Positions 1,488 through 54,533 of a stretch of 64,000 nt of DNA are shown piece by piece (position 1 is the first letter of the stretch; every line of letters begins with the position of its first letter). The notes under the pieces were generated by a model that was given only the letters and a program-made list of their open reading frames with translations, did no database searches and had not been told where the DNA came from. The stretch comes from a virus. The DNA lies in IMG/VR virus record IMGVR_UViG_3300046499_000680, positions 19,202 through 83,201 of that record; one strand, written 5' to 3'. The position numbers and the translations under genes are program-made.

Positions 1488-2950
1488 TGAAATACAACTT
1501 CACGAATGGCACCGACACGCAGAAAGAACAGTGGCGCCAGGCGGCCCACCGTTTGCTGCACCTGCCGTTCGATGAACTGCCTCTCAGCATCGAAGTCACG
1601 TTTGTCCCGTCGAGCAGCCTGAACAAACAGACCACGCTGGCGGAGACCAACTGGTCCTACGGGTCCAGCTTCTCGACCACCGAAGTGCGCAACGACGCGC
1701 CCACCTTCGGCTCCCTTGCCAGCCTGAAGGCCGAGGCGGCGGCCCTGGGTCTCACCTGGTCAACGGAGAAGTTCTACGCCGAGACCTCCGTGCATGAGCT
1801 TGGGCACGCCGCATATGCAGCGCTGCCGGAAGACGCGCGGATCGCGATCGCCAAAATGTTCGGAGCCAAATCGGACGACATCGAAGAACTGTCGGCGCCG
1901 AGCAAATGGCAGAACCGGATCATCGAGGGTATCGCGGAGACCTTCAAGGAGGCGTTCCTGCCTGCTCGCCACCGTGTGTTTCCAAACCGTACGAATAAGA
2001 AGATCGCCTACAGCCGCTTCCCCGAATTCAGGAAACTGTTCCGCTCCTACGAAACGATGGACGGTGGCGAAGGCGGCGAAGGCGGCGGTGGGTGGAAACC
2101 GCTGCCGAAAGCTGACACCGCGCGCATCGGCGACGACCTCCACAATGACCCCCTCGGCTTCGCCACCCCACGGGTCGGACTCTATGACCGCTATGAATGG
2201 GAAGGCAGCCCGATCGGCGGAGTACCGACCGAGCCGGTTCACTACATCTGGGGGTCACGGGCAAGCTCGAACTGGATGGGGCACGCCAACGAAAAACTCG
2301 AAGTGCGGCAGCCGATCGTGCCTCCCAACATGGCGTTCTTCGCCCCGACCGCTGAGTGGGCAGGAGGCTTCACCGAGGGGGAACCACCTGCATTCGGCTG
2401 GGTCAGTTGGAACGCTTGGCAGATGTCGGCCTTCATCGTGATCCGGGATGCCGCTGGCAAAGACTGGAGCATGGAAGTGTCACTCCAGATCATCCCCGAG
2501 GTCGAACAGAAACTCTTTGAATTCCAAACCGAACTGAAATGGTGGCTGGTTGGGCTGCGGAAGCTCCCGTTCCAGGAAACCCCCGAAACGTTGTACGGCT
2601 CCAGTGTCCTCTCGATCATCCTGGACGGTTGGGGGGTCAGCGGCGAGGAAATCTTCCAGGCATGGGAAGCCAAAGGGCAGACCATCACCCGCAACGAAGA
2701 CGGCAGCGACGTGTACTTCATGCGGGCTGGCGCGTTCTGCGCTTGCGGCAACGCAAACCTGCTGGCGCAGGTGCCGCCGCGCCGGACGATCGAAGCCGAG
2801 CCGCTGGAAGAAAACATGCTCGAACTCTGGGCGCGGCCCCTCGAAGCGACTGAAGAAGAAGGCACGAAAGTCAGCATGACCGCGCCCGGCGGATCGCTCG
2901 AACCGACCGGCTCCAAGAGCGGGCGCCACCTGCACCCAGTCGCCTCCTGA
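1487..2950 (+). CDS. Zincin metallopeptidase domain fused to a Trp-rich C-terminal domain
   Basis: HELGH motif, downstream EGIAETF (gluzincin-type third ligand), Gly linker DGGEGGEGGGG; ATG overlaps upstream TGA. Confidence 0.65.
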   Translation: MKYNFTNGTDTQKEQWRQAAHRLLHLPFDELPLSIEVTFVPSSSLNKQTTLAETNWSYGSSFSTTEVRNDAPTFGSLASLKAEAAALGLTWSTEKFYAETSVHELGHAAYAALPEDARIAIAKMFGAKSDDIEELSAPSKWQNRIIEGIAETFKEAFLPARHRVFPNRTNKKIAYSRFPEFRKLFRSYETMDGGEGGEGGGGWKPLPKADTARIGDDLHNDPLGFATPRVGLYDRYEWEGSPIGGVPTEPVHYIWGSRASSNWMGHANEKLEVRQPIVPPNMAFFAPTAEWAGGFTEGEPPAFGWVSWNAWQMSAFIVIRDAAGKDWSMEVSLQIIPEVEQKLFEFQTELKWWLVGLRKLPFQETPETLYGSSVLSIILDGWGVSGEEIFQAWEAKGQTITRNEDGSDVYFMRAGAFCACGNANLLAQVPPRRTIEAEPLEENMLELWARPLEATEEEGTKVSMTAPGGSLEPTGSKSGRHLHPVAS

Positions 2951-3003: not shown

Positions 3004-3483
3004 CTACGCCGGGGGCGCGCCCTCCGGCGGGGTCTCGCCCTCGGGCGGGGTGCCCTCGGCGGGCGGGGTCTCCCCGGCGGGCGGCTCGCCACCTTCGGCG
3101 GGCGGGACCTCGCCGCCGCCCTCGGGCGGAGCGGGCGGCGCGGCGGCGGTCGCCAGCGCGGTCGCCACGTCGGTCACCTTGCTGGTGATACCGTCGATCT
3201 GCTCCTGCGTGATCTCTCCGGCGGTGAGCTGCGCTACCTCGTCCTTCAGGGCGGTCAGCTCGGCCACGGCCGCGCCCTCCGCCGCCGCGAGGGCGTCCAC
3301 CGCCGCTTCGAGTCCTTCGACGTTTGCCATCAGTCGGTTCACCTTTCTGTGCAGGGCGCCGAGGGACAGCAGGATCAGACGGACCTCGGGGCCAAGGTTG
3401 ATCTCGATGTCGATCTCGATCTCCTCCAGCTCCTCCGACCGGCAACCCAACTGCTCCAGGATGCGCCTCTCGTTGTCGTTCAT
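3004..3483 (-). CDS. Coiled-coil protein with Pro/Glu/Gly-rich tail
   Basis: MNDNERRILEQ...; heptad region then PPAEGG repeats; -10-like TATGGT 7 nt before the ATG (leaderless). Confidence 0.7.
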   Translation of the reverse strand: MNDNERRILEQLGCRSEELEEIEIDIEINLGPEVRLILLSLGALHRKVNRLMANVEGLEAAVDALAAAEGAAVAELTALKDEVAQLTAGEITQEQIDGITSKVTDVATALATAAAPPAPPEGGGEVPPAEGGEPPAGETPPAEGTPPEGETPPEGAPPA

Positions 3484-20109: not shown

Positions 20110-20194
20110 TGCTACCTTTCCCATGCTGCGAAACGGGCTGTGGCCTCGTCCCTCCGAAGGTGGGGGGCATCCGAGGCTGACGGCCCCTTTTTTT
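20110..20194 (+). promoter_or_regulatory. Extended -10 (TGcTACCTT) followed by a terminator-like hairpin and T7 run abutting the sigma-factor ATG
   Basis: Stem GGGCTGTGGCCTCG / CGAGGCTGACGGCCC (20135-20186), T run 20188-20194, ATG 20195. Confidence 0.55.
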
Positions 20195-20815
20195 ATGCAC
20201 GCTCAGACCGCATCAGACCCGAAGCTAATCCGCCGCTATGAAGGTGTGGTGCGAACGACCGCCTCGATGACTGTGGAACGGTGCGAGGAAGAATTCGAGG
20301 ACATCTGCCAGCTCTTTCGGATCAAGGTGTGGATGGCCTTACTGAGCTATGACCCTGCGAAGCTGACCAACGAAAAACCTGACGCCAAGGGTCGTACTCC
20401 TCTGGACAGGTACGTCTTCGCCTGCATCAAAAATCAGCAGAAGGACCTCGAAAAGAAAGTGAAGCACGCCCACCGAGTGACCTATATCGAGGGTCTGGAC
20501 AAGGGGCACGGTGAGCGGTTCGAGGCAGAGTTCCTGGCGGTCTCCGACGAAACGATGTTCATCGCCGCCGAAGACATCGCCCCGCTGATCCCCTCGACGC
20601 TGGACGAGCGCGAGCGCCGGATCGTCACCCTGCTCTACATGGACTTCGACAACGGTGAGATCGGCGACCGGCTCGGCATCAAACGGAAGCAGGTCGCGAC
20701 GATCATCCGGGGCATCCGGGAGAAGCTGGCCGACTGGGCGCCCACGGGCTGGCGGTCGGCGACGGAGCCGCCCCCGCTGGCCCCCGCGTCCGAGCCGATG
20801 CCGATCGCCGCCTAG
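20195..20815 (+). CDS. Phage sigma-70/ECF-type sigma factor
   Basis: Region-2-like EFEDICQ...YDP...RYVFACIKN; region-4 HTH LDERERRIVTL...EIGDRLGI; alternative in-frame start at 20123. Confidence 0.8.
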   Translation: MHAQTASDPKLIRRYEGVVRTTASMTVERCEEEFEDICQLFRIKVWMALLSYDPAKLTNEKPDAKGRTPLDRYVFACIKNQQKDLEKKVKHAHRVTYIEGLDKGHGERFEAEFLAVSDETMFIAAEDIAPLIPSTLDERERRIVTLLYMDFDNGEIGDRLGIKRKQVATIIRGIREKLADWAPTGWRSATEPPPLAPASEPMPIAA

Positions 20816-22190: not shown

Positions 22191-22465
22191 AGTGGGATCA
22201 GGAGGAAGCGTTTGGTGTGGTTCAGCTCGATCCCCGGCGCGCACTGGCCGCAGAAGATCACCAGCTTGCCGCTCTCCAGGTCGCGGAACATGAACGCGCC
22301 TGCCGTCTTCTCCTCGTCCAGCTCCTGCTGGCAGGTGGAGTTGGCGCAGAGCTTGATCCCGCCGTAGGGCGGCAGCAGCTTCCCGAGCTGGGACCCCGGC
22401 TCGGCGTCGTAATCCTCGGGGACGTGAATCTGGAAGCCGTCGGCGAATCCGTCGTCGGGGGTCAT
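22187..22465 (-). CDS. Small zinc-finger protein
   Basis: CANSTC...CGQC; overlaps both neighbours. Confidence 0.65.
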   Translation of the reverse strand: MTPDDGFADGFQIHVPEDYDAEPGSQLGKLLPPYGGIKLCANSTCQQELDEEKTAGAFMFRDLESGKLVIFCGQCAPGIELNHTKRFLLIPL

Positions 22466-23469
22466 CGCGCACCTACCGCTTCTTCAAACTCCCGTTCGGA
22501 CTTCGCGATCGCCTCGTGCAGGTCGTCGCGGACCAGCTTGGTGTAGGCGAGGGTCTGCTGGAGGTTCGAGTGCCCGAGCAGTTTCTGCACGATCTCCAGC
22601 CGCCGCGTCGTCCGCAGCCACTCGGTCCCGGCGGTGTGCCGGAAGCGGTGGAGCTGCCACTGGCTGGGCTGGTGCGGGATCGGGTGGCCGATCGTCCGCA
22701 TGAGACCTTTGAATCGGGTGTAGCGCATCGGTTTCAGCGCGTGGACCTTGTTCGCCAGCGACAGCCAAGGGGTGTCGTGGGTCGGCCCGAGCTGGGTGCG
22801 CAGCTCGATCCAAGCTCGGACGGCGGCGCGGCTCGTCGCGGTGTGCGGCACCTCCCGTTGCTTGTCGCCGTCGTTGTCACCCTTGGCGTGCTTCACCACG
22901 ATGTAGGCGTTGTCGTAGTGGATGTCATCGAGGCTGGCCCGGAAAATCTCCTGGCGCCGGAGACCACAGTGCAGGGCGAGGGCGATGATCGCCTCCATCT
23001 GCACCCGCATCGCGTGGGTCCTGATCCGGCGGAACGGCGAGGTCCCCCGGCCGAATCGCGCCCAGAATTTCTCGTCCACCTTCGGCCACGCTTCATCGAA
23101 CTCCTTCCAGAACTGGGCGAGTTCTTTCTTCGAGTACGGGCGCGGCTTCGACTTGCCGGTGGACTGCCGGGGGGCGCCGATCTGCTGCACCGCGACCAGC
23201 CGCTCGGCGTCGATCACTTTGGCGCCCCATCCCCAGGAGAACCACGGCCGGAGCATGTTCAGCTCCTTGCGGATCGTGTTGACGTGGCAGCCTTCGTCGG
23301 CGCGGTGGGCGAGGAAAGCGCGCACGTCCTGGTCGTCGCAATCCTCCGGTGCTTTGCCCGCGAGGTCGCCCATGCCGGTGATCGCCCGAATCTGTTCCTG
23401 GCGACGGCCGGGGCTGATCCCTTCGTACTGCTGATAGTCGCGCTCGAAGCGTTCGATCGTGGTGGTCAT
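22462..23469 (-). CDS. Tyrosine recombinase/integrase (XerC/D-like)
   Basis: GLRRQE, AKG, HRFRH, LLGH, TLAY catalytic set; N-terminal core-binding domain; GGAG RBS. Confidence 0.92.
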   Translation of the reverse strand: MTTTIERFERDYQQYEGISPGRRQEQIRAITGMGDLAGKAPEDCDDQDVRAFLAHRADEGCHVNTIRKELNMLRPWFSWGWGAKVIDAERLVAVQQIGAPRQSTGKSKPRPYSKKELAQFWKEFDEAWPKVDEKFWARFGRGTSPFRRIRTHAMRVQMEAIIALALHCGLRRQEIFRASLDDIHYDNAYIVVKHAKGDNDGDKQREVPHTATSRAAVRAWIELRTQLGPTHDTPWLSLANKVHALKPMRYTRFKGLMRTIGHPIPHQPSQWQLHRFRHTAGTEWLRTTRRLEIVQKLLGHSNLQQTLAYTKLVRDDLHEAIAKSEREFEEAVGAR

Positions 23470-23490
23470 GGTCTTCTCCAAGTGTCGGGT

Positions 23491-23502
23491 CATCCTACAC
23501 AT
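23491..23502 (-). promoter_or_regulatory. Extended -10 promoter candidate ATGTGTAGGATG upstream of the recombinase
   Basis: TGnTAnnnT; identical 12-mer at 55182-55193 (+). Confidence 0.5.
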
Positions 23503-23558
23503 AGGGCCGCCGAGCAATGACGCCCGACGGCCCTGGAACTGCGGTATTTGCGCCCGGC

Positions 23559-26583: not shown

Positions 26584-27722
26584 GGTCGTTCTCCTAGTAG
26601 CTCGCGGGCGCGCTCGACGCCCTGGTCGGTGAGGGTGCGACCGCCGTGGCCCACCTGCACGAAGCCACGCTCGATCAGGTACGGCTCCACGCGCAGCGCG
26701 ATCGCCTTGCTGTCTCGGCTCTTGCCGATCGCGGTGGCGATGGTGCCGACGCTGGCCTGGTAGCGAATCTCGTCCTTCACTTTGCGACCGGCGCGGGTGT
26801 AGAGGAAGGTCAGCATCCCCTGCATGTCGGCGGTCAGGCCGTCGGCGGTGACGCCGCTCACGTCCAGCACCTCGTCGGCGACGGCCACGCTGATCGTGTT
26901 GTCGGGGCCGACCAGGGATTCGCCGTTCAGGATGAAGTTATTCACCTCGCGCGGCACGCCACGGGAGGCGTTGGCGAGCCTCACCGCCGCCGAGACCGTG
27001 ATCTGCACACCCAGCCGTTCAGCGTTCCAGACCGCCATAACGGCGATGTCGTCGGCGCTGTAGCGCTCCAGCCGAGGCCGGATCGGGAAGCGGTTGATGA
27101 AGGCGTCCGGCAGCATGCCCTCGTCGGTGGTGGTGCCGACGATCGTGATCGACGGGTAGGGCAGCACGCCGGTCCCGGTGGTGATCGTTCGATCCTCCAT
27201 CACCTCGTACAGGACCTCCGGCGTCATCGCCGAGCTGCGCCCGCGCCGGTCGCCCGCACCCTGCTGGTGAATCTCCTCGATCCGCAGCAGGTCGCCGTCC
27301 TTCATGGTCTCGCGCAGGAGGAGCAGCGTTTCATGGGAAACGGGGGCCTCGACGGCGAACACATCCACGTCGAGTTCGTTGGCGATGACGTGCGAGAAGG
27401 TGGACTTGCCGGTGCCGCTCGGCCCGATCAGGAGGATGTGGTCGAGCGGACGGTCCCGGTTCGCGGCGGCGGCGACGAACCGCTGCATCGTCCTCACCGC
27501 CCGTTCCTGCCCGACGATCTCAGCGAACGTGGCGGGCCGCAGGGGGTTGGAGGTCCGTTCGGCGGCCGTGACGGGCGACGGGGCCGCTGAGGGCGCCTGG
27601 TGGCCTCCCAGCGGTGCTACACCGTACGCCGTAGCACCTGGCGCGAAGTCAGCACGGCGAGCCGCGAGTGCGGCGCCGTCAGCAAGTGCAGAAGTGACCG
27701 TGCGGTGGGGCAAAGTTCTCAC
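26580..27722 (-). CDS. ruvB: RuvB-like Holliday junction branch-migration ATPase
   Basis: LRPATF.E.VGQ, DHILLIGPSGTGKST, EEIH, LYEVMED, RGVPR, EPYLI..G. Confidence 0.85.
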   Translation of the reverse strand: MRTLPHRTVTSALADGAALAARRADFAPGATAYGVAPLGGHQAPSAAPSPVTAAERTSNPLRPATFAEIVGQERAVRTMQRFVAAAANRDRPLDHILLIGPSGTGKSTFSHVIANELDVDVFAVEAPVSHETLLLLRETMKDGDLLRIEEIHQQGAGDRRGRSSAMTPEVLYEVMEDRTITTGTGVLPYPSITIVGTTTDEGMLPDAFINRFPIRPRLERYSADDIAVMAVWNAERLGVQITVSAAVRLANASRGVPREVNNFILNGESLVGPDNTISVAVADEVLDVSGVTADGLTADMQGMLTFLYTRAGRKVKDEIRYQASVGTIATAIGKSRDSKAIALRVEPYLIERGFVQVGHGGRTLTDQGVERARELLGERP

Positions 27723-27782
27723 CTCCTACGGAAGTTTACGCAGGTTCCAAGGAAACATGCGTTAGATGGGCGAAAGGATGTA

Positions 27783-27889
27783 GGCTCGAACAGCGCCGAG
27801 CCGGTTAGGAACAGCGAGCAGCCGGGGTTCGACTCCCCGGTGGGGCGGTGGGCTACCGTTGCCAGCTCGACCAGTACGGTCGGCTCGGC
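27783..27889. ncRNA. Intergenic multi-hairpin element with a tRNA-T-arm-like hairpin
   Basis: GGCTCG-aacagcgc-CGAGCC; second AACAGCG; CCGGGG-ttcgact-CCCCGG (27822-27840); hairpin 27861-27889. Confidence 0.4.
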
Positions 27890-27895
27890 GTCCAG

Positions 27896-28870
27896 CTAGT
27901 CGTTGGTCCGCAGCACCAGGGCCTCTAGCTGCTGATCGAGCAGGCCCAGCTTGATCTCCATCTCCTCCAGCGAGGTGCCGAGGAGGCCGACGTAGCGTTC
28001 ACGATGCTCGCCGAGGAATTTGCGCTGGGCGAGGATGTTGCCGACGCGATCCTTGCGCATTTTCCGTTCGTCGTTCTTCAGCGCCTCGGTCACGTCGGCC
28101 ATCAGCTCGTCTATCTCCGAGCTGACGTTGGCGTTGAAGTGGCGTTCGATCAGTTCGCGCTGGCCCTCCGCCGACACCGTGGGGATCAGGTGCAGCTCGG
28201 CCCTGTCGATGCCGTACAGCTCGGTGATGACGGTTTCGAGGGAGTCGAGGTCGTCCTTGCCCGCCTTCGGCACGAAGTAGACGCCGCTGCCGCCGCTCCG
28301 CTTGCGGATGTTGACGGCGCCGATCTCTTTCAGCAGCTTGCGGATGCCGGAGCGGACCCGCGAGCCGGGCACCTTTTTCGCGTTGCGATCGAAGTGGTTC
28401 TGGATCAGGTCGAACAGGCCGGAGAGGTCCGAGGCATCCATGTCGGTCAGCCTGTCGATCGGCTCCCAGGACATCAGTTCGGTGTTCTTGTCGAAGGTCA
28501 GCTTCATCGCCTTCGGGTGGTCGATCAGCTCGTTGCGCGCGTCACGGGCGAGCTTGGTCACCTGGTAGACGACGCGATCTTTGTCCTCGACCACGGGGTC
28601 CACCTCGATCTCGATGCGCCGACTCTGCGCGTCGGTTCGACGGCTTCGGCTCTCGATCGACCGCGCCGCGACCTGGAATGCGTTCTTCGCGGAACGGGAG
28701 TTGGGGATTATGTCGTGCGGCAGTCCCTCCGAAATCCACAGCCGGTTGAGCTTGCTGGCGGACACGGGTTCGTCGGGCACGGTGAACAGGGCGTAGAAGC
28801 CCATGATGTGATCCAGGGTGATCTCGCCGCCGGGGGTGACAGCGACCACACCTTTCGGTACGCGAGCCAC
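27896..28870 (-). CDS. Conserved phage protein (DUF6744/DUF3150-like)
   Basis: Motif around SGVYFVP; helical C-terminus; AAGGAGG RBS; family assignment from memory. Confidence 0.55.
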   Translation of the reverse strand: MARVPKGVVAVTPGGEITLDHIMGFYALFTVPDEPVSASKLNRLWISEGLPHDIIPNSRSAKNAFQVAARSIESRSRRTDAQSRRIEIEVDPVVEDKDRVVYQVTKLARDARNELIDHPKAMKLTFDKNTELMSWEPIDRLTDMDASDLSGLFDLIQNHFDRNAKKVPGSRVRSGIRKLLKEIGAVNIRKRSGGSGVYFVPKAGKDDLDSLETVITELYGIDRAELHLIPTVSAEGQRELIERHFNANVSSEIDELMADVTEALKNDERKMRKDRVGNILAQRKFLGEHRERYVGLLGTSLEEMEIKLGLLDQQLEALVLRTND

Positions 28871-29319
28871 TATGGGCCTCCTTCGGTTGATGGTTCGGGG
28901 ACGATTTCCTTACCGCATTCGGGGCAGTTGTCCGATTCGCGGTTGACGATGGACTCCACCGTCGTCATAAAGCCGTGGTTGCAGTGCGGGCACGAACACC
29001 AGACCAGTGCGATGCCGCCTTCGGGCGGCTGCTGGCCTGGTTTGAGGCTGCCGGATGCAAGCGACCGCACCGTGCTGGCAGAGGCGAGGATCGGCCGTGA
29101 CGCCTGTTCGGCGCCGGGCTGGGGCAGGGTCACGTTGCCGAGACCGATGCGTTCCATCACCTTGTCGATCATCGGGCCGACGGCGAGTTCGTAAAGCGCC
29201 TCGGGTCCCACGGTGAGCATCAAGTCCTCGATGACCTCGCGATCCCAGTCGTCCGCGCGGTCGGCGATGACCGCTGCGATCTCGTCGTAGATCGTCCAGC
29301 CGTCGCCGAACCGGCCCAT
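28870..29319 (-). CDS. Hypothetical protein with C-terminal Zn ribbon
   Basis: CPHC...CPECG. Confidence 0.65.
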   Translation of the reverse strand: MGRFGDGWTIYDEIAAVIADRADDWDREVIEDLMLTVGPEALYELAVGPMIDKVMERIGLGNVTLPQPGAEQASRPILASASTVRSLASGSLKPGQQPPEGGIALVWCSCPHCNHGFMTTVESIVNRESDNCPECGKEIVPEPSTEGGP

Positions 29320-29320
29320 G

Positions 29321-29818
29321 TCAGGCGCCCTCGACCTGCGTGAAGCGCACCCACGGCGAGTTCGATGCGCCGGGCGCAATTTTGAAGTCGGTCTCGGGGT
29401 CGGCGATGCACTGCGCGGCGACGTGCATGATCTGTTCCTTACGTTCGGCGGAGACTCGCTCGCCTTCCGCAAACATGCCGTGGATCAGCGCATCCAAGTT
29501 GGCGTACGCGGTGATCTTCCGACTGGGGCGGATGACCATGAAGATGTACTCGGGTGACAGTGGGCTGATCGGGAACTTCGCCCGCAGGTCGCGGCCTATG
29601 TCGGAGTCGGACATGTCGGTCGATCCGACAAGTTTCACCCACTCCGTATCCCAGGCGTCACCCTCGGGGTTGTTCTCCGTATCCGTCTTCGGGGACATGA
29701 CCAGGATCGTGCTGTCCTCGTCGTCGCCGGTCAGCACGACGCCCATCACCTTGCCGCTGCCATCCCACTTCGGGCCTTCGAGAACGTCGCCCGGTGCCAG
29801 CTCGTCGCGCCAGCTCAT
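29321..29818 (-). CDS. Hypothetical protein
   Basis: Tiles the operon; TGATG overlap. Confidence 0.7.
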   Translation of the reverse strand: MSWRDELAPGDVLEGPKWDGSGKVMGVVLTGDDEDSTILVMSPKTDTENNPEGDAWDTEWVKLVGSTDMSDSDIGRDLRAKFPISPLSPEYIFMVIRPSRKITAYANLDALIHGMFAEGERVSAERKEQIMHVAAQCIADPETDFKIAPGASNSPWVRFTQVEGA

Positions 29819-31449
29819 CAGGTAATCGCCTCAGCGAGGTGCTGGGTTGCGTCATTCGTTCCGGCCAGGTCCCAAGCCGCAACCGTGTCGTCGCACATCT
29901 GCTCCAGGTAGGCGTTGGATTTCATGCCGATGGCGACACCGTGCAGCCGCACGCCGCGTTCCCGCAGCTCGTCGCGCAGGGCTACGTCGTCCTCCTGGAA
30001 GTAGTCCATGCCGTCCGTCATCAGTACGATGTCGGCGGTCTTGAACTCGGGCACCATGTCGATCAGCTCTTTTGCTTTCTCGACGCCGCCGGTCACATCG
30101 GTGCCGCCGTGGAACATGTGCGATGCGAAGTCCACGATGCGCAGCGGGTTGATCGGCTCTTTTGCCATGAAGTCCCACCGCTTGGTCTGGCCGTACGAGC
30201 TGAACTCGACGGCGGCGGCGTCACGTTTCTCCCGCTTGGCGATCGCGATGAAGCTGATTGCCAGCGAGCGCGCCCAGACGTTGGGCATGCCGTTCATCGA
30301 CCCTGAGCCGTCCAGGCAGACGATGATCGGCCCGCGCCCGGCCTCGGCGTAGCCACGGGTCTCATACTGGACCAGCGACCGTTCGTAGAAGCGCCGGATG
30401 AAGTCGCGGCGAAGTACCGGATGGCGCAGCTTCACCTTCTCGCTCGGGAGCAAGAGCGGCAGGTCGTCGCCGAGCTTCACGTCGATGATCTCCTCGCGAC
30501 CACCAACAACACGGTTCGTTCGCCGGTAGCGGATGTCACGTTGCATCCGGCCGATCATTTTCGCCATGTCAAACAGCTCGGGATTTTCCTTCCACTTCTG
30601 CGCCAGTTCGATCATTTCGTCGGGCGACAGCTTCTGCCCGCTGCCCGGCTCGGTGCCGGGCAGGCTGCCGATGGCGTCAGTGGCTTCCTGCGCGCCTTCG
30701 AGTGCCTGGTCGATCGCTTCGATGGCACCGACGCCGATGCCTTTCTGCTGCTGTTCGGCCTGTTCTTCGGCGAGGCCCTGGCGCGCTTGCGTCTTCTGCT
30801 GCGCCTGTTCCTTGATCGCCTGCTTAAGTTCGGGGTTGACTTCGCCGCTTTCCTGGTGTTCCTGCGCGGCCTGCTGGCGCATCTGTTCGAGGGCTTCCTG
30901 CGCCCCCGTGATCTGCTGCTCCTGGTCGGACATCCTCTTGGCGCCGACCACCATCTCTTTCATCTGCTCCTGAAGCGACTCGCGCAGACCCTCAGACATG
31001 TTGATCGTGGCGAACGCGGCCGAGATTTCGTCGTGGCGCGTGTCGGGCCGCATCGCCTGGAATTTCTCGCTGGCGATGATCTGCTGAAGGATGCGCCGGT
31101 TCAGGTCGCGCGAGGGCTTGAACTCGCCCTGGTTCTTCAGCTCCGGCTCCTGAAGCGTGTGCAATGCGCGGAAGGTGTCGCCGAACAGGTTCTGCCAAGC
31201 GACGTACTCCAGAACCTTCTCGCGTTCCTCGTCGCTCAGTTCGATGGCTTTGCCCTCGTCGTCCGTGAGGTTGTCAAGGTCCACCTCGGGCACATCGAAC
31301 ATGGCGCCGCGAAAGTGTGACGCGCGTTCGGTCATGTCTTCCAGCACCCCGTCATCAAGGCGGTCGTGCCGGACTACGCTGTCGCTCAGCGCGGGAAGGT
31401 TCTTGGTGCGCTTGAACAGGTCATACACACGCTGCGACATGTCCGTCAT
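29818..31449 (-). CDS. VWA-domain protein (ViaA/CoxE-like)
   Basis: MIDAS DGSGS, GGTD, MTDG; long coiled-coil middle. Confidence 0.88.
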   Translation of the reverse strand: MTDMSQRVYDLFKRTKNLPALSDSVVRHDRLDDGVLEDMTERASHFRGAMFDVPEVDLDNLTDDEGKAIELSDEEREKVLEYVAWQNLFGDTFRALHTLQEPELKNQGEFKPSRDLNRRILQQIIASEKFQAMRPDTRHDEISAAFATINMSEGLRESLQEQMKEMVVGAKRMSDQEQQITGAQEALEQMRQQAAQEHQESGEVNPELKQAIKEQAQQKTQARQGLAEEQAEQQQKGIGVGAIEAIDQALEGAQEATDAIGSLPGTEPGSGQKLSPDEMIELAQKWKENPELFDMAKMIGRMQRDIRYRRTNRVVGGREEIIDVKLGDDLPLLLPSEKVKLRHPVLRRDFIRRFYERSLVQYETRGYAEAGRGPIIVCLDGSGSMNGMPNVWARSLAISFIAIAKREKRDAAAVEFSSYGQTKRWDFMAKEPINPLRIVDFASHMFHGGTDVTGGVEKAKELIDMVPEFKTADIVLMTDGMDYFQEDDVALRDELRERGVRLHGVAIGMKSNAYLEQMCDDTVAAWDLAGTNDATQHLAEAIT

Positions 31450-32041
31450 CCGGCGCTCCTTTGTAGTTCGATTTGTGCGGGTCGAAGCCCGGCAGGATCA
31501 GCTCGTAAGCGTCCTCGTCGGGCATCGTGAAGCTGAAGTCGATGACGATGGGGATGCCCGTTCGCTCGGCACCAACAGCGTCGGTCAGGTACTCACGGTA
31601 CAGTTCCGCCGCGCGCCAACGCGGCAGGGGCAGGAAGTACGTTGCGCGATCGGCCCAGAGCTTCGAGAACTCGGGGATCGCCTCGCCGAAAATCTTCTCG
31701 ACATCGAACGGCTGGTCGCACGTTCGGCGCAGGACCACGATGCGATCGGGATCGGCGCCCGCGTCCTCGGGGTCCGGCTCCACGCAGTCGTCACAGTCGC
31801 AGTCTTCGGTGGTGCAATCCTCGTCTAGCGACGATCCGCTCCAGCCGCACGCCTGGCACTCGTAGCCGTCGTCCGTGACATCGACGTTGCCCTGGTAATC
31901 GGGTTCGGCGTTGCGGTCAACCTCGCCGTCGTCATCAAGCGTGTAGCGGATCAACTCCGTCGCCAGCTCGCGCTGGACCAGCGAGCCGCTGTCTGCTGGC
32001 TCCGAGCAGTGCGGGCAGCCGACAAAGGCGCGTTCGCACAT
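31421..32041 (-). CDS. Cys-rich acidic hypothetical protein
   Basis: CPHC, CQACG, CDCDDC. Confidence 0.65.
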   Translation of the reverse strand: MCERAFVGCPHCSEPADSGSLVQRELATELIRYTLDDDGEVDRNAEPDYQGNVDVTDDGYECQACGWSGSSLDEDCTTEDCDCDDCVEPDPEDAGADPDRIVVLRRTCDQPFDVEKIFGEAIPEFSKLWADRATYFLPLPRWRAAELYREYLTDAVGAERTGIPIVIDFSFTMPDEDAYELILPGFDPHKSNYKGAPDDGHVAACV

Positions 32042-32045
32042 CGGA

Positions 32046-33257
32046 TCAGCTCCCGATGCCGAGCAGCTTCTTGACGCTCTCGCGCGAGCCGGTGATGTCC
32101 TGGGCGAGCTGGTCGAGTTCGGCGGTCTCATGTCCTTCCTCTTTGCCGTTGTCGATCGCATCGCCGACGCGCTGGCTCAGCTTCTTGAGCATGTTCGACA
32201 CCACGCCGATGTTGCCCATCAGTTCGCTGTCGGGCACGCTGCCGTCGGCGGGCATTTTCTGCTGCAAGTCGCTCAGCGCGGCCTGCTGCTCGTCAAACTC
32301 GCCGCGCAGTTTGGCCGCCTTCTTGGCGACGGCGCCTGCGTAGTCCAGCGTCAGCTCGTACGCAGTGCTGTGATCTTCGGGGTCGCTCCAAAGCACATGC
32401 TCGAAGACCTTCATGTCCTCGACCGACACCTCAGTGCGGCCGGTCAGCGCCGCCGCCGCGAGCATCAGCTTGACACCCTCGAACAGGCGCCTGGCGCTGA
32501 TCGTCAGGTTCTCCGACTCAGCGCGGGAGCGCAGTTCGACCAGCGCCTTTTTCACGTTCGGCGGGACTTCGACCTCCGTGGCCGTCGCCTGTATGGCCGC
32601 GATCTCCTCGGAGGTGACCAGCGTGGGCTTGGCGACGATCGGCTCGCCGCGTCCACGGGCGAGCTGGCCGTCGAGTACCTGCGTCAGTCCTTCGCTGGTG
32701 CGGACATGCTCGACCATCTTGGTGATGCCGAAGCGGTCGCGGAAGGCCCGCAGGTCGTCGCGGTCGGTGCCGGGCAGCTCGTTCGATGCACCCACGCAGG
32801 TCCACAGCGGGACGGTCATCGAGTGCCCGTTGTTGTGGAAGATGCGCTCGTTGATGATCGACAGAAGCGCGTTCAGCACGGTGCTGTTCGCCTTGAAAAT
32901 CTCGTCCAGGAAGGCGACGTTCGCCTCCGGGAGCTTGTCGCGCGTGATCCGCCGGAATTCGTCGTTCTCCAGCGCCGCGAGCGAGACCGGGCCGAGGACC
33001 TGATCGCTCGGGGTGTCCTTCGCCAGCAGCACCTCGAAAAGCGAGGCGTCGGCGATGTGCGACATGAATTCGCGGATCAGGAGGGACTTCGCCACCCCTG
33101 GTTCGCCGATGAACAGCGGGTGCGAGCGGGCGATGATCGAACGGACCAGCAGGTCGATCTCGACTTCGCGCTCGGGCAGCCCAGCTTTCAGCTCGGCGAT
33201 GACGTTCTGGAGTTTGTCGGCGGGCGTCACCTTCGTCTTCGTCGCGGTCGCGGCCAT
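32046..33257 (-). CDS. MoxR/RavA-family AAA+ ATPase
   Basis: GEPGVAKS, AFLDEIFKAN, LNALL...NER, GASNELP, DRF. Confidence 0.9.
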   Translation of the reverse strand: MAATATKTKVTPADKLQNVIAELKAGLPEREVEIDLLVRSIIARSHPLFIGEPGVAKSLLIREFMSHIADASLFEVLLAKDTPSDQVLGPVSLAALENDEFRRITRDKLPEANVAFLDEIFKANSTVLNALLSIINERIFHNNGHSMTVPLWTCVGASNELPGTDRDDLRAFRDRFGITKMVEHVRTSEGLTQVLDGQLARGRGEPIVAKPTLVTSEEIAAIQATATEVEVPPNVKKALVELRSRAESENLTISARRLFEGVKLMLAAAALTGRTEVSVEDMKVFEHVLWSDPEDHSTAYELTLDYAGAVAKKAAKLRGEFDEQQAALSDLQQKMPADGSVPDSELMGNIGVVSNMLKKLSQRVGDAIDNGKEEGHETAELDQLAQDITGSRESVKKLLGIGS

Positions 33258-33263
33258 AGTGTG

Positions 33264-34013
33264 TTAATTCCTTCCGTTCGTTCGGGTCAACTGCGGATAA
33301 GGGAAGTCGGGTACCAAGCGCTTGACCGCGAGCTGCGTCAGCTCTTTCAGGTCGGTGCGCAGTTCTTCGCGGCCCTGCTCAATCAGCTTGTCACCATAGG
33401 CGCCGCCGTTCGAGGTCGGGCTACGCATGAAGGTCCCAAAGACCGGCGGAATCACGACCTCGCCGCGCTCGAAGTGATCGAGCTGGTGCGGCCAGTGTTC
33501 CTGCTCGGCATTGGCTTTCGAGCAGCACTCGCGCGGCTGCTCCCAGTTCTGCCATGCGGTGATGATCTTGTCCGCGTGGCGTCGAAGTTTCGCCGGATAG
33601 GTGGCGACGACTCGGGCGACGGCCGCGAGGAGCGCGGGGTCGATAGGCATCTCGCAACTCCCGTTGGGATTTACGTGCGCGCCGTGTGCGTACGGCACCA
33701 ACCCGTTCGCGGGATCGACCAACCAGGTCAATCCGCCCGCGCGCTCGATGCGCGCCGGAGTGAAGGTCGCTATTCGATCCAGGGTCACGTTCGTGAACCA
33801 GCCCTGATCGTTCGGCGAGCCTGGCCCGCGAAGGTCGATGGTCACGCCGTCGGGCCGGTACATGGCGATGATCGTGTCGTGCAGCTTCAGCCCGACCAGC
33901 TCGTCGGCGTAGTAGACCAGGCGCGTGTTCCGCGCGATCTTCTTGGTCGCCAACACCTCGCCGGACCGTTTGTGCTTCAGGGTCTCGACGGCATCGTTCG
34001 CAGTGGCAATCAT
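33264..34013 (-). CDS. Hypothetical phage protein
   Basis: KIARNT...LHDTII...GWFTNVT.DRI pattern; ATGA overlap. Confidence 0.7.
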   Translation of the reverse strand: MIATANDAVETLKHKRSGEVLATKKIARNTRLVYYADELVGLKLHDTIIAMYRPDGVTIDLRGPGSPNDQGWFTNVTLDRIATFTPARIERAGGLTWLVDPANGLVPYAHGAHVNPNGSCEMPIDPALLAAVARVVATYPAKLRRHADKIITAWQNWEQPRECCSKANAEQEHWPHQLDHFERGEVVIPPVFGTFMRSPTSNGGAYGDKLIEQGREELRTDLKELTQLAVKRLVPDFPYPQLTRTNGRN

Positions 34014-34189
34014 GCGCCACCGCTCACGTCTTCAAAGGTCGGTTCGCTGTCTTCGATCGAGAGCTGCACGTCCTCGGGGCCGTCCGTCAGCCCGCTGGCG
34101 ATTTCCTCGGCGCGTTCGCGGGCCTGCTTCTCAGAGTCAGCGCCGACGCGAAGCCAGCACTTGAACTCGTAGACGCCTGCGCCGGTCAT
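34010..34189 (-). CDS. Small acidic protein (59 aa, not in ORF track)
   Basis: MTGAGVYEFKCWLRVGADSE...; ATGA overlaps at both ends. Confidence 0.65.
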   Translation of the reverse strand: MTGAGVYEFKCWLRVGADSEKQARERAEEIASGLTDGPEDVQLSIEDSEPTFEDVSGGA

Positions 34190-34521
34190 CGTTCGGCCGC
34201 CTCTCGCAGCTCGCGCTCGGTCAGTTCGATGTCATCGGCCGGACGGGCGCGAAGCTGGTTGCACAGCTCGGCGAAGGCTCGGAAATACTCGGGGTTCCCA
34301 TCCAGCTCGCCCGGCTCCAGCAGCGAGCCTGCCACCTCGATCACGTCGCTCGCGCTCAGCACGCGCTCAGACTCGAAGTCGTCCTCTCTAAGCCCGTCTT
34401 CGATGGCGTCGGTGTCGCTGACGATCGCCTCGGGCACATAGCGCACCGTGCAGCCTTCGCTGCCCGTGAAGGTCTCGCCGTCGTTCAGCACGACGATCTC
34501 CGAATGGTCGGGGTGGTGCAT
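34186..34521 (-). CDS. Hypothetical acidic protein
   Basis: GGAGG RBS; TGATG overlap. Confidence 0.7.
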   Translation of the reverse strand: MHHPDHSEIVVLNDGETFTGSEGCTVRYVPEAIVSDTDAIEDGLREDDFESERVLSASDVIEVAGSLLEPGELDGNPEYFRAFAELCNQLRARPADDIELTERELREAAER

Positions 34522-34919
34522 CAGCGGAACCTCCGTTCGAGGTAGTGAGGATGGTTGAGCAGGAAAAGGTCGTGCATGAGGCACGTTCGCGGGAGGCGGG
34601 TGGAAGGTTCGCGCCCGTCGAAGATGCGCAGCAGGTCGGTGAAGACTTTGCACGACTTTGCAAAGTGGCCGCCGTCGGCGAGTTCGCGGCTCAGCCCGAT
34701 CGAGCAGGTCGCCAAATCGTATTCGGCGACGATCGACGGCGAGGCGAAGGCCGGGACGATCTGAGCTTCGACAGCACAGGCCGGGGGCGTTGCGTTCGCT
34801 GCCACGTTGTAGGCGAACTGAGCCGACGGCGACAGCGGCGCGGCGCGGGCCGTCGTCGCCAGCAGCAAGAGCATGAAGGCGCAGGCGCCTAGCGCGAAGA
34901 ATCGCTTGGCGGGCAGCAT
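34521..34919 (-). CDS. Putative secreted protein
   Basis: Signal-peptide-like N-terminus ending ARA-AP; paired Cys. Confidence 0.6.
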   Translation of the reverse strand: MLPAKRFFALGACAFMLLLLATTARAAPLSPSAQFAYNVAANATPPACAVEAQIVPAFASPSIVAEYDLATCSIGLSRELADGGHFAKSCKVFTDLLRIFDGREPSTRLPRTCLMHDLFLLNHPHYLERRFR

Positions 34920-35131
34920 CAGCGCGTCACCTGCTCGCGCGGCTCGCGGCGGCCGGAGATCGTCACAGATCGGCCGAAAACGCAGAAGCTGAGGTTCGCC
35001 GACAAGTGCGTCGGCGGCGCGAATTCGCCGTCGTCCAGATACCGGCAGATGACGAGGTGCGGACGCTGAAACCAGACACGCCGAATCCGCCCCTGACGCT
35101 GCCGTTCGAGCGTCCCGATGTTGACGGCCAT
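34919..35131 (-). CDS. Small hypothetical protein
   Basis: MAVNIGTLER...; TGATG overlaps. Confidence 0.55.
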   Translation of the reverse strand: MAVNIGTLERQRQGRIRRVWFQRPHLVICRYLDDGEFAPPTHLSANLSFCVFGRSVTISGRREPREQVTR

Positions 35132-35424
35132 CAGTTGAACACCGCCCGGCCGAGCCGATTCAGGTGCTGGCCGAGCCGTTCGTGGAAGACCTCGACCTCT
35201 GGGTCGTCGTCCGCCAGGGCGGCCGTGACGGACCTGGGAATCTCGAAGACCCTGGAGGTGCCGTTCGCCGTGTCGTGGGCGCAGACGATGGCTGAGCCGT
35301 CGCCGTCGGCAGCGAGCGCGTGATGCTCGGTGAAGTCGGGCAGCTCGGCGACCATCCCGAGGGCGTCCATGCCAGCCATCGCGGCGAAAGCCTCGTCGGT
35401 GTCGATGATCGGGAACGTCTGCAC
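35131..35424 (-). CDS. Hypothetical protein
   Basis: GGAGGTG RBS before GTG. Confidence 0.7.
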   Translation of the reverse strand: MQTFPIIDTDEAFAAMAGMDALGMVAELPDFTEHHALAADGDGSAIVCAHDTANGTSRVFEIPRSVTAALADDDPEVEVFHERLGQHLNRLGRAVFN

Positions 35425-35493
35425 GGCTCACCTCCATTCGTTCGTAGGATCGGGCAACTCTAACCCTGTTCGTAGAAGACTTGCGACCAGGGG

Positions 35494-35608
35494 GTCAAAA
35501 GATCGTTCGATGCGCCGCCGCGTCGCGTTTTAACCCTGCGCTAGCACGGGCGTCCCCGCTGATGAACAGGACTGGCCGACTCGACGGCGCATCCAACGAT
35601 CCGACCTT
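35494..35608. ncRNA. Long hairpin / three-way-junction RNA candidate
   Basis: 16/17 inverted repeat 35501-35517 vs 35585-35601, extendable, enclosing two small hairpins. Confidence 0.4.
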
Positions 35609-35803
35609 TCAGGGTCGCTTGTCGGCGAGCTGGTCGAACCCGTAGCCTCCAACGGTGGTCCCGTTTTCGTCCCGGATGCGACCGCTTTGCTCGCCCATCA
35701 CCTCTAGTTCGTGCGCAGCTCGGCGAAGGGCATCCGCCACATGCTGAGCCGTTGACATGAGTTCGTTGCCCATGTCGATGTCGAGGCTGAAGTTCTCGGG
35801 CAT
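35609..35803 (-). CDS. Small conserved phage protein
   Basis: AAAGGA RBS; FSLDIDMGN...VADALRRAA...IRDENGTTVG. Confidence 0.7.
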   Translation of the reverse strand: MPENFSLDIDMGNELMSTAQHVADALRRAAHELEVMGEQSGRIRDENGTTVGGYGFDQLADKRP

Positions 35804-35809
35804 CGGGGA

Positions 35810-36345
35810 TTCCTTTCCGCGTTGTAGAGCCATGTTCGTCACCACGCGCAAACACGTAATGAGGGAGGCTCGGATTAAGGTCTTCCGCACGGCTTACGTC
35901 CCGTTCGCCATCGCGATCGTGGACTGCATGCGGGAAGGTCTTCCCCGAGGCCAGATCGGCGCGTTCGCAGGGAGCAACAGAGCTTTGCTACTGGCGACGT
36001 ACATCCTGGCGCTGCGGGGAGAATCGGCGCGCTACTCGGCTCGCTCGCAAGCGGCCGATCGCACGCGCCTAAAGTCTGAACTGGAGTTGCAAGTTCGTAA
36101 CGCCCGCCTGTTCGCTCTCGGGCCGCAGCGGGCTTCGTGCCATCCAAGCACGGCCCCAGTGACGTACTTACCCTTGGTCCAGGCTTTGCACGTCCGTTCG
36201 TAGACTTACACGCAACGAGTGATTCTGTTCGTTGCGAAGCGCAAACTTACGCTCCCGGAGGATGTGTGGGTCTGTGCTGAACGCTTGCTTTCGCGCCCGG
36301 CCGCTCGCTGTTCGCTACAGGCGGGGCGGATGGCACGAAAACAAG
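35810..36345. ncRNA. Large structured non-coding RNA candidate (~550 nt)
   Basis: No credible ORF; many nested helices including perfect 12-bp 36134-36145/36328-36339 and crossing 9-bp 36103-36111/36317-36325. Confidence 0.6.
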
Positions 36346-36382
36346 CGGCGGCGCGGGCACCCTTGCGGGCACCCGCGCCGCG
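36336..36382 (-). terminator. Intrinsic terminator-like hairpin after the 36386-36661 gene
   Basis: Minus strand GCGGCGCGGGTGCCC-gcaa-GGGTGCCCGCGCCGC then cgcttgtttt. Confidence 0.65.
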
Positions 36383-36385
36383 CGC

Positions 36386-36661
36386 CTACTCTTTCGGCGG
36401 GGTGAGCAGATGCGGGAACAGCGCGGTCACAGCGGTGAGCTGGACGCGCTTCATGCGACCGCCGCCGCGCGGCCTGTACTCGACGTACTCGACGCCCGAG
36501 GGCGACTGCACGATGTAGGCGTCCCCGTGTCCGCCCGCGACCTCGCAAGGCCCGAACAGCTCTTTGTACTGCGGGGACGCTTTGGCGGGCTGCGCCTGCG
36601 TGGCCGCGCGCTCCTGCGCGGCCTGGGCGATGTCCAAAGCGCTCTTGACGCTTGAAGCCAT
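36386..36661 (-). CDS. First gene of the leftward arm, hypothetical
   Basis: GGAGGT RBS; terminator downstream. Confidence 0.7.
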   Translation of the reverse strand: MASSVKSALDIAQAAQERAATQAQPAKASPQYKELFGPCEVAGGHGDAYIVQSPSGVEYVEYRPRGGGRMKRVQLTAVTALFPHLLTPPKE

Positions 36662-36692
36662 GTTGCGATACCTCCATGTCGGGTTTCACGGG

Positions 36693-36973
36693 GTCAACCG
36701 CGAGTGTTCACCCCCACCCGTTAGCCCATGTCGGGCAACGGGCAAGGTTCTACCGTCGGGGATACAACCGCCAGCATTCACCCCCCGCCGTGGCCGCCGT
36801 GCCTAGCCCACGCCTAGGGGTGAACACTGCCGGTTATCCCACTGAGGCCGGTACAGCACCACCGGCCCACCGGGATCACCCCCCGCCGTGACCAACCGGC
36901 GGCGGCCAACCCTTCCTAGAGAATCGACCCGATCCAGCCTGAGAACGGCGGGGGGTGAACACTCCCGGTTGAC
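36693..36973. repeat. Five copies of a ~28-bp motif (CAACCGSSAGTGTTCACCCCCCGCCGT) in mixed orientation
   Basis: 36693-36722(+), 36765-36791(+), 36817-36835(-), 36867-36889(+, partial), 36944-36973(-); outer pair is a 27/30 inverted repeat. Confidence 0.85.
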
Positions 36974-37005
36974 GTAGTGACCCTAGAACATCCGTCTACG
37001 CGCAC

Positions 37006-37033
37006 TTGCGCGCGGGGGGAGTAGGTTTAACAT
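37006..37033 (+). promoter_or_regulatory. Host sigmaA-type promoter candidate
   Basis: TTGCGC-16 nt-TAACAT upstream of the first rightward gene. Confidence 0.35.
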
Positions 37034-37066
37034 GGGGTCATGGTCACTTCTACGAAAGGTGCTGAC

Positions 37067-37273
37067 ATGGTTTCCAAGAGGCAGCTACTCCAAGAGCTTC
37101 AGCGGCGGATTGACGCCGCCCGCGATGCCGCCGACTGGCGCATGGCCGAGCTTTACACCTGCACCGCGCTGAGGATTCAGCGCGCGCCGAACCTTGCGGT
37201 AGCGGGCCAGACGGCCCGCGAAGTCGCCGCCACCGATGCCCGAATCAGCCTCACGGATCGGATCGGCCGATGA
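37067..37273 (+). CDS. Small hypothetical early protein
   Basis: GAAAGGTG RBS; ATGA overlap with the next gene. Confidence 0.6.
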   Translation: MVSKRQLLQELQRRIDAARDAADWRMAELYTCTALRIQRAPNLAVAGQTAREVAATDARISLTDRIGR

Positions 37274-53910: not shown

Positions 53911-54533
53911 ACCGCCTTGGCATCGACGTGAGCAACAACAACGGCACGGTCTCCTGGGCCGCCGTTGCCCCGCACATCAGCTTCGCGCTGCTGAAGTCGA
54001 GCGAGGGGTTGTCGTTCGTGGACAGCTTCCTGCACGGCAACATCAAGGGCTGCCGGGAGAACCACATCCCCTGCGGCCCCTACCACTTCGCCAGCAACGA
54101 AGGCGCCAGCGGCAAGGCCGAGTGCGACCACTTCCTCGACACCGCGCTGAAGGCCGGGTGGGGGAAGGTCGGCGATCTGCCCGGCACCCTCGACATCGAG
54201 CATGGGCAGGGCGGCCGTCCCGGCGTCCGGTTCGTCCGCGAATTCGCCCGCCGGTACCGCCAGCGCACCGGCCACAGGGTGATGGTCTACACCGGCTCCT
54301 TCTGGCGCGACATCCTGCTGAACCCGGTCGTCCTCGGCCGGTCGAAGCTGATCCTCGCCGCCTACACCTCGACCTGGCACGGCTGGTCCCCGCGCGCCTG
54401 GAAGAAACCCTGGATATGGCAGTACACCGACCAGGGCACGCTGCCGGGTCTCAGCGGCAACGTGGACCACGACCGCTTCCTGCGGAGTGAGAAGAAATTC
54501 CAGCGCATGAGGCTGAAGGAGGCCGTCCGTTGA
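53907..54533 (+). CDS. GH25 muramidase endolysin
   Basis: GIDVS, KSSEG, YHF, LDIE, VYT, WQYT, VDHD. Confidence 0.92.
   Translation: MNRLGIDVSNNNGTVSWAAVAPHISFALLKSSEGLSFVDSFLHGNIKGCRENHIPCGPYHFASNEGASGKAECDHFLDTALKAGWGKVGDLPGTLDIEHGQGGRPGVRFVREFARRYRQRTGHRVMVYTGSFWRDILLNPVVLGRSKLILAAYTSTWHGWSPRAWKKPWIWQYTDQGTLPGLSGNVDHDRFLRSEKKFQRMRLKEAVR

Follow-up and report, generated by a model that had tools for sequence, protein, structure and literature searches.

Conserved minus-strand hairpins in an early-operon spacer of an uncultured soil phage are candidate cis-acting RNA elements

We find that the 582-nt gap at positions 35804-36385 of the window, a 64,000-nt stretch of viral DNA, is a real, non-coding interval that is conserved in related uncultured soil phages. 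It lies between two small minus-strand genes, encoding proteins of 91 and 64 amino acids, and it reads best as a patchwork of short, separately conserved minus-strand hairpins made up of a terminator, here called T1, and at least three stem-loops. As judged by comparison of related sequences, these elements form a new set of candidate cis-acting phage RNA hairpins in an early-operon spacer.

The window corresponds to bases 19202-83201 of an IMG/VR record (83,201 bp, direct terminal repeats, 66% G+C), whose source is an uncultured soil phage that is probably temperate. A codon-usage gene map divides the window into three gene blocks (Table 1), and the leftward block encodes a MoxR ATPase, a VWA protein, a DUF6744 protein, a RuvB-like ATPase, and a tyrosine integrase. 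The leftward block and the second rightward block in fact diverge at 36662-37039, and the gap sits one gene further into the leftward block. The original prediction had placed it at the head of the leftward operon, a position that has to be revised, as the gap comes after the operon's first gene and that gene's terminator. It had also been called the longest gene-free stretch; the gap is real, but on the codon-based gene map it is the second longest, after 53911-54529 (619 nt). Within the divergent region upstream of the 91-aa gene, positions 36685-36973 contain several repeats of ~25-30 nt in both orientations that look like operators. These repeats are kept in three of the related contigs introduced below (L048-L050, by blastn), and the 150-nt fold z-scores reach down to -5.3 there.

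The 91-aa protein belongs to a small conserved orphan family, with 18 homologues at 62-99% identity (alignment A1), and matches no Pfam or PHROG family. Its AF2 model has a pLDDT of 77.5, and fold searches with this protein returned generic β-sheets only, none of them significant (Foldseek E >= 0.39; VIA Z <= 5.5). On the other side of the gap, the 64-aa gene is an exchangeable cassette: in contigs of soil runs X2 and X3, positions 35522-35824 are swapped for 303-327 unrelated bases, and the conserved flanks of the swapped cassette are an element that we term block E on one side and 35400-35521 on the other. After the 64-aa gene, a long minus-strand hairpin at 35500-35605, with GTTGGATGC and GCATCGAAC in its arms and then a U-run, has two clear homologues in the distant contig L003, at 2745-2845 and 3070-3180 (plus strand), each flanking a small gene. 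It appears to represent another conserved family of early-left hairpins and is probably a terminator. Beyond the leftward block, the 230-aa protein is predicted to contain a sigma-70 region 4, and the phage may be able to redirect transcription with a factor of its own.

A further observation concerns the 173-nt gap between the RuvB-like and DUF6744 genes, where positions 27770-27870 hold a plus-strand near-copy of the apical sequence of hairpin H2 (Table 1), adjoined near 27.83 kb by a tRNA T-arm-like stretch, GGGGTTCGACTCCCC. ARAGORN called no tRNA at 27770-27870, and the exact 25-mer of the T-arm-like stretch, a candidate attP core, had no match in GTDB genomes. Either an attP core or, if read on the minus strand, a further CGAAC hairpin could account for this feature.

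Table 1. Genes and sequence elements in and around the gap, in window coordinates
Feature	Position	Strand	Basis or description
Rightward structural genes	up to ~20.8 kb	+	Codon-usage gene map
230-aa protein gene	20123-20815	+	Sigma-70 region 4 match, E = 2e-5
Leftward block	36661 down to 20812	-	Codon-usage gene map
Tyrosine integrase gene	22462-23517	-	
64-aa protein gene, next after the gap	35609-35803	-	Codon score; preceded by GGAAAGGA; PHROG matches weak
Block E (54 nt)	35816-35869	-	nhmmer and alignment; gapless in five phages, one copy per genome
123-codon ORF (P0001)	35832-36203	+	Predicted by gene finder; judged not a gene
Hairpin arm	35882-35938	-	Direct repeat AAGGTCTTCC on its flanks; covered by contigs of four soil runs
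Long irregular hairpin (TCCCCG/CGGGGA arm)	35942-36020	-	Minus-strand folds
Hairpin C	36026-36069	-	Outer stem 6-7 bp, internal loop, inner stem 4-5 bp
Block D	36070-36101	-	YACGAACU, then a short stem-loop; blastn to L048 892-943 and L049 1785-1850
H3, local hairpin	36102-36133	-	6-bp stem; AGCGAACAG in loop
Local hairpin (8-bp helix)	36211-36236	-	ACGAACAGAAU in and around loop
H2 hairpin	36283-36346	-	5' arm is the U-tract of T1; apical loop with invariant A.CGAAC.G
T1, intrinsic terminator	36338-36381 (stem 36348-36381)	-	Terminator scan
91-aa protein gene, first of leftward unit	36386-36661	-	Gene-like codon score
Second rightward block	starts 37040	+	Codon-usage gene map

A gene caller predicts a gene inside the gap, a plus-strand ORF that would, if it were a real, lineage-specific and divergently transcribed gene, leave the rest of the gap as its 3' region. 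The first half of this ORF has a moderate codon signal (margin 0.17), and its third-position G+C is raised as far as ~36020, but the second half is without coding signal. The ORF as a whole has a codon log-likelihood of -4.13 per codon and a margin of 0.06, below nearly all other ORFs of the gene map. A search of 5.8 billion proteins returned no match other than the ORF itself, and among 1.8 billion representatives, scanned exhaustively, there was one marginal match of 42 residues. The relatives keep the DNA but no reading frame: their long antisense ORFs at the same place do not align with it as proteins, and the tblastx matches of the conserved gap blocks are spread over all six frames alike. 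Long antisense ORFs tend to arise in G+C-rich DNA, and all of the structural evidence presented below favors the other strand. According to the original prediction, a conserved coding signal in this ORF would speak against an RNA; with no homologues, a weak codon score, and unconserved frames, no such signal was found, and we consider a plus-strand gene extremely unlikely.

We compared the locus with five metagenome contigs that carry the 91-aa gene (L048-L052) and with the distant L003, and also with the contigs of four soil runs over the region. In L048-L051, a non-coding stretch of ~500-640 nt follows the 91-aa gene, and the gene that comes next differs between phages; the L052 contig ends ~520 nt past the 91-aa gene, and L003 likewise has a non-coding stretch after its 91-aa-family gene. 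The L003 ATPase, which is the best ATPase relative, is only 47% identical to that of the window, and synteny with L003 is confined to the downstream side. Between the window and its relatives, third codon positions of the 91-aa gene are 41-58% identical and thus near saturation, whereas the gap blocks show 72-86% identity (blastn), which indicates that the blocks are under selection. Among 50,697 phage records, neither the gap DNA (blastn) nor the 91-aa protein (tblastn) found a match, and the cultured-phage relatives of the MoxR ATPase are all below 40% identity. Scans of IMG/VR with the flanking proteins, the family alignment, and a degenerate block E pattern yielded no close relative, and GTDB genome contigs contained no prophage copy of the 91-aa family.

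Behind the stop codon of the 91-aa gene, T1 displays the hallmarks of a Rho-independent terminator, namely a G+C-rich stem-loop with an immediate U-rich tail, located downstream of a stop codon. Its 15-bp stem includes 13 G-C pairs and is capped by a 4-nt loop, and its tail reads CGCTTGTTTT. A hairpin with a U-rich tail right behind the stop codon is also found in L048-L052, with different stem sequences, and T1 is absent from L003. H2, which shares sequence with T1, forms with an ensemble probability of 0.99 and in the window has a z-score of -4.46 on the sense strand versus -1.69 on the antisense strand. In alignment A5, made with MAFFT and imperfect for L051 and L052, 79.7% of the H2 cells are paired, compared with 29-49% for slid partners. 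The H2 covariation score was matched by 7 of 500 shuffles, a frequency that, like the other shuffle statistics reported here, overstates significance because only 6-7 homologous sequences, mutually related, are available. The covariance model of H2 (R2) found one extra match outside its training set, at L003 2689-2738. This L003 hairpin has 20 bp, a z-score of -7.2, and UAGCGAAC in its loop, and it comes directly after the gene for a 100-aa distant homologue of the 91-aa protein. H2 therefore stands behind the 91-aa gene in seven of seven phages. The covariance models of H2 and hairpin C found no second copy of either element within the window.

Hairpin C, which the original prediction had picked out as a set of nested stems, is the best example in the gap of an RNA-type stem with compensatory changes. 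In alignment A6, 100% of its 50 cells are paired and 4 of 10 pairs are changed on both sides; the slid controls are 12-54% paired and have zero compensatory changes. It folds with a z-score of -3.95 and occurs as a single copy per phage. Both H2 and C thus show the comparative signature of a candidate cis-acting hairpin, in that the helix is kept through compensatory substitutions and on one strand. Block E contains a small hairpin at 35839-35862 and, after it, an invariant TGGCTCT, and the ribosome-binding site of the next gene, whichever that is, follows immediately downstream of the block. The block E hairpin is 86.7% paired in the sense orientation versus 75.6% in the antisense orientation, with one A-U to G-C exchange, and in the soil-run contigs the homology picks up again at 35811-35837, past the replaced downstream cassettes. 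Among the other modules, the hairpin at 36211-36236 lies in a segment that some relatives replace, and the apical part of the long irregular hairpin recurs in an insertion found in L050 (75% identity over 73 nt, L050 2307-2377).

The strand, which the original prediction had left unresolved, is now settled: the conserved elements are on the minus strand, co-directional with the flanking genes. The counts of G-U pairs, the orientation of the terminator, the bias of the CGAAC motif, and the sense z-score of H2 all agree on this point. H2, C, and the block E hairpin together have 18 G-U cells when read on the minus (sense) strand and 4 when read on the plus strand. Within the gap, the minus strand has 8 copies of the pentamer CGAAC and the plus strand has 0; the corresponding counts in the relatives are 7-10 versus 0-2. 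Moreover, CGAAC is the most enriched sense-strand pentamer in the first ~9 kb of the leftward unit (27000-36400), with a density of 7.7 per kb, compared with 2.3 for other genes read in the sense direction and 1.7 for the antisense strand of these ~9 kb. This 3.4-fold sense-strand excess extends over all three codon phases, has no extended flanking motif, and is seen as the same bias in the loci of the relatives. With coding DNA enriched as well, the presence of CGAAC in the hairpin loops may partly reflect a regional bias.

Folding statistics place the signal mainly at one end of the gap. Compared with dinucleotide shuffles, the whole gap has a minus-strand z of -5.6 and a plus-strand z of -3.2, and these values weaken to -3.4 and -1.9 once the terminator is removed, so that a good part of the fold signal is due to the terminator at the right end. 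In 150-nt windows, only the T1/H2 end (36225-36449) stands out, with z-scores of -3.6 to -4.5; windows inside the gap range from -0.2 to -2.2, the same range as neighboring coding DNA. Folding better than dinucleotide shuffles is thus a property of the whole gap but not of its interior, where 150-nt windows do no better than the flanking coding DNA.

The gap had originally been read as a single ornate RNA of ~550 nt, held together by long-range helices and containing a pseudoknot switch. The helices on which this model was built do exist: the 12-bp helix 36134-36145/36328-36339 pairs at 12 of 12 positions, the 8-bp helix 36211-36218/36229-36236 at 8 of 8, and the 9-bp helix 36103-36111/36317-36325 at 9 of 9, and the helix 36202-36211/36264-36273 has 8 Watson-Crick pairs out of 10. 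The internal repeats AAGGTCTTCC and CTGTTCGCT are likewise real, with exactly two copies each within the 64-kb window. A perfect 12-bp inverted repeat is uncommon, arising in 1.4% of shuffles and in 3% of this genome's real windows, and the minus-strand z-score of the whole gap remains -3.4 without T1. The pseudoknot or switch formed by the crossing 12-bp and 9-bp helices, however, is absent in the relatives and thermodynamically negligible. Both helices have ensemble probabilities of ~0.001, and forcing the 12-bp or the 9-bp helix costs +7.0 or +5.0 kcal/mol, respectively, relative to the MFE. On the sense strand, the bases that the 12-bp helix would use on its 5' side (36339-36328) form the 5' arm of the conserved H2, and both long-range helices compete with H2. 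No equivalent long-range repeat is present in L048-L051, and when RNAalifold was applied to the whole gap with the three closest relatives, it predicted a long-range closure with a positive, that is, unfavorable, covariation term. In favor of the single-RNA model, the stretch 36101-36142, where the 9-bp helix has its left arm and the 12-bp helix most of its own, is almost unchanged, with a single difference over 42 bases, in an X5 contig that elsewhere is ~84% identical. This stretch is the CGAAC-loop hairpin H3 (the left arm of the 9-bp helix lies within H3, that of the 12-bp helix next to it), and its conservation therefore needs no long-range pairing.

The relatives also differ in how the gap is assembled. 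Block D precedes hairpin C in the window and follows it in L048-L050. L049, and only this relative, has a 54-aa ORF with a plausible protein sequence (1660-1824, plus strand) inserted between C and D, and in L050 an insertion of 190 nt follows H2. In a soil contig of run X5, positions 36143-36278 are replaced by 96 other bases, and the soil contigs keep block E and H2 while swapping 36143-36278 and the 64-aa cassette. Neither the fixed domain order nor the conserved closing helices of a single large non-coding RNA were found among the 6-7 homologues compared. With module order and content differing between relatives and long-range repeats lacking an equivalent there, the single ~550-nt RNA is not borne out, and we regard it as very improbable.

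Rfam 15 (4227 families) gave no matches at gathering thresholds over the whole window and nothing relevant in L048-L052. Over 35400-37100, with E-values up to 5, the only matches were chance ones of the miRNA type (19-21 bits), and no covariance model of a GOLLD/ROOL-type RNA, the resemblance suggested in the original prediction, matched at E up to 5. GOLLD and ROOL are, like the gap, phage-borne, non-coding, and several hundred nucleotides in length; unlike them, the gap has no conserved multi-domain architecture, and relatives reshuffle its pieces.

Several other identities were considered and rejected. An ECF-type promoter with CGAAC as its -35 element lacks a second conserved block, the conserved bases of block E miss the spacing of a sigma-54 promoter by one (by eye), and there are no GAAC-N4-GTTC palindromes that would mark LexA half-sites (by eye). 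For a retron, omega-RNA, or intron, there is no partner gene nearby and no Rfam match.

The main rival to an RNA-based interpretation is that the gap is a control region at the DNA level, with promoter and operator sites for delayed-early or "moron" genes, block E being the promoter, and with a cluster of terminators that insulates the first gene; on this view, the hairpins would count purely as terminators. Block E is well suited to such a role: it is gapless, has fixed spacing, is present in a single copy, and sits at the point where the downstream cassettes swap, and its invariant TGGCTCT is kept as sequence and not as a pairing partner. The 64-aa gene followed by its own long hairpin and U-run is the usual promoter-gene-terminator layout, and the phage encodes the protein with the sigma-70 region 4 match. 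The conserved hairpins of a G+C-rich phage could, moreover, be merely stacked terminators, a point that counts against our main reading. On the other hand, 35300-37200 contains no sigma-70-type promoter on either strand, and at 16-18 nt from the CGAAC sites there is no further conserved block. U-tails are missing from H2 and C, and a terminator would need neither the invariant loop of H2 nor the compensatory changes seen in C and in the block E hairpin. We therefore view control at the DNA level as a genuine possibility but an unlikely one.

The hairpins might instead belong to one or more stand-alone small RNAs acting in trans, for instance one that starts after T1 and spans H2 and the neighboring hairpins. 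The conservation of the hairpins, their strand specificity, and their conserved loop motifs would all fit, and the apical sequence of H2 is nearly complementary to minus-strand RNA from the 27.8-kb intergenic region. Such an RNA would run into the 64-aa gene, however, because no minus-strand terminator lies between H2 and that gene; no promoter was found, and the modules are gained and lost independently. A small RNA of this kind strikes us as improbable.

We favor the reading, at about even confidence, that the gap is a spacer in the early leftward unit in which H2, C, and block E are candidate cis signals for a factor that recognizes CGAAC loops, setting the read-through, processing, or stability of the delayed-early message. 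The option that the region is a leader controlling downstream genes, also raised in the original prediction, is plausible. In the scheme that we propose, T1 would stop most transcripts beyond the first gene, and RNA that passes T1, or that starts just downstream of it, would carry H2, C, and block E. These would act as cis signals, most likely as recognition or processing sites for a trans-acting reader of CGAAC loops, and would set the amount of stable message that reaches the exchangeable delayed-early genes, for which block E would provide a fixed 5' junction.

A bolder extension of this scheme is that the CGAAC-loop hairpins (H2, H3, the hairpin at 36211-36236, and their counterparts in the relatives) are the visible part of an undescribed phage RNA-recognition system, in which a phage factor, possibly the 91-aa protein, reads CGAAC in RNA for terminator read-through, processing, or protection of the early-left message. 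Both the 3.4-fold CGAAC excess and the placement of H2 after the 91-aa gene in every phage compared fit this idea, which we nevertheless think rather doubtful. With respect to an arginine-rich antiterminator of the N type, the 91-aa protein shows an RPRGGGR.KR stretch (alignment A1) and no family or fold match.

The layout of the locus is reminiscent of the lambdoid early operons with their tL1/tR1 terminators and N-nut boxA/boxB elements. In both cases, an intrinsic terminator stands behind the small gene that opens a divergent early operon, the transcript contains short hairpins whose loops are conserved, and an integrase is among the downstream delayed-early genes. Unlike in the lambdoid nut sites, H2, C, and block E lie downstream of T1 rather than close to the promoter, no boxA-like GCTCTTTA (with at most one mismatch) is present on the minus strand over 35300-37100, and the loops contain CGAAC and not a GNRA-like pentaloop. 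The putL and putR elements of HK022, which the original prediction mentioned, are, like the candidate elements described here, cis RNA composed of stem-loops in an early phage transcript and independent of any known phage protein, a likeness drawn by description only. HK022 put sites are ~70 nt long with two stems and are located upstream of the terminators that they suppress; the modules of the gap, by contrast, come after T1 and vary in number and order. A third comparison is with the RNase III hairpins of the T7 early region, which are intercistronic elements on polycistronic RNA whose cutting stabilizes the message. Hairpin C, intercistronic and with an internal loop, resembles these sites; T7 RNase III sites are not known to have a conserved loop motif like CGAAC.

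The locus also carries a more general caution, in that perfect long helices and apparent pseudoknots found in a single G+C-rich sequence failed once homologues were aligned. If the hairpins are functional, they would represent new cis-regulatory RNA motifs for a temperate soil phage lineage without cultured members or annotated early genes, and they would help in understanding how immediate-early and delayed-early expression are kept apart in this lineage. An orphan early protein combined with an invariant-loop hairpin lends itself directly to testing.
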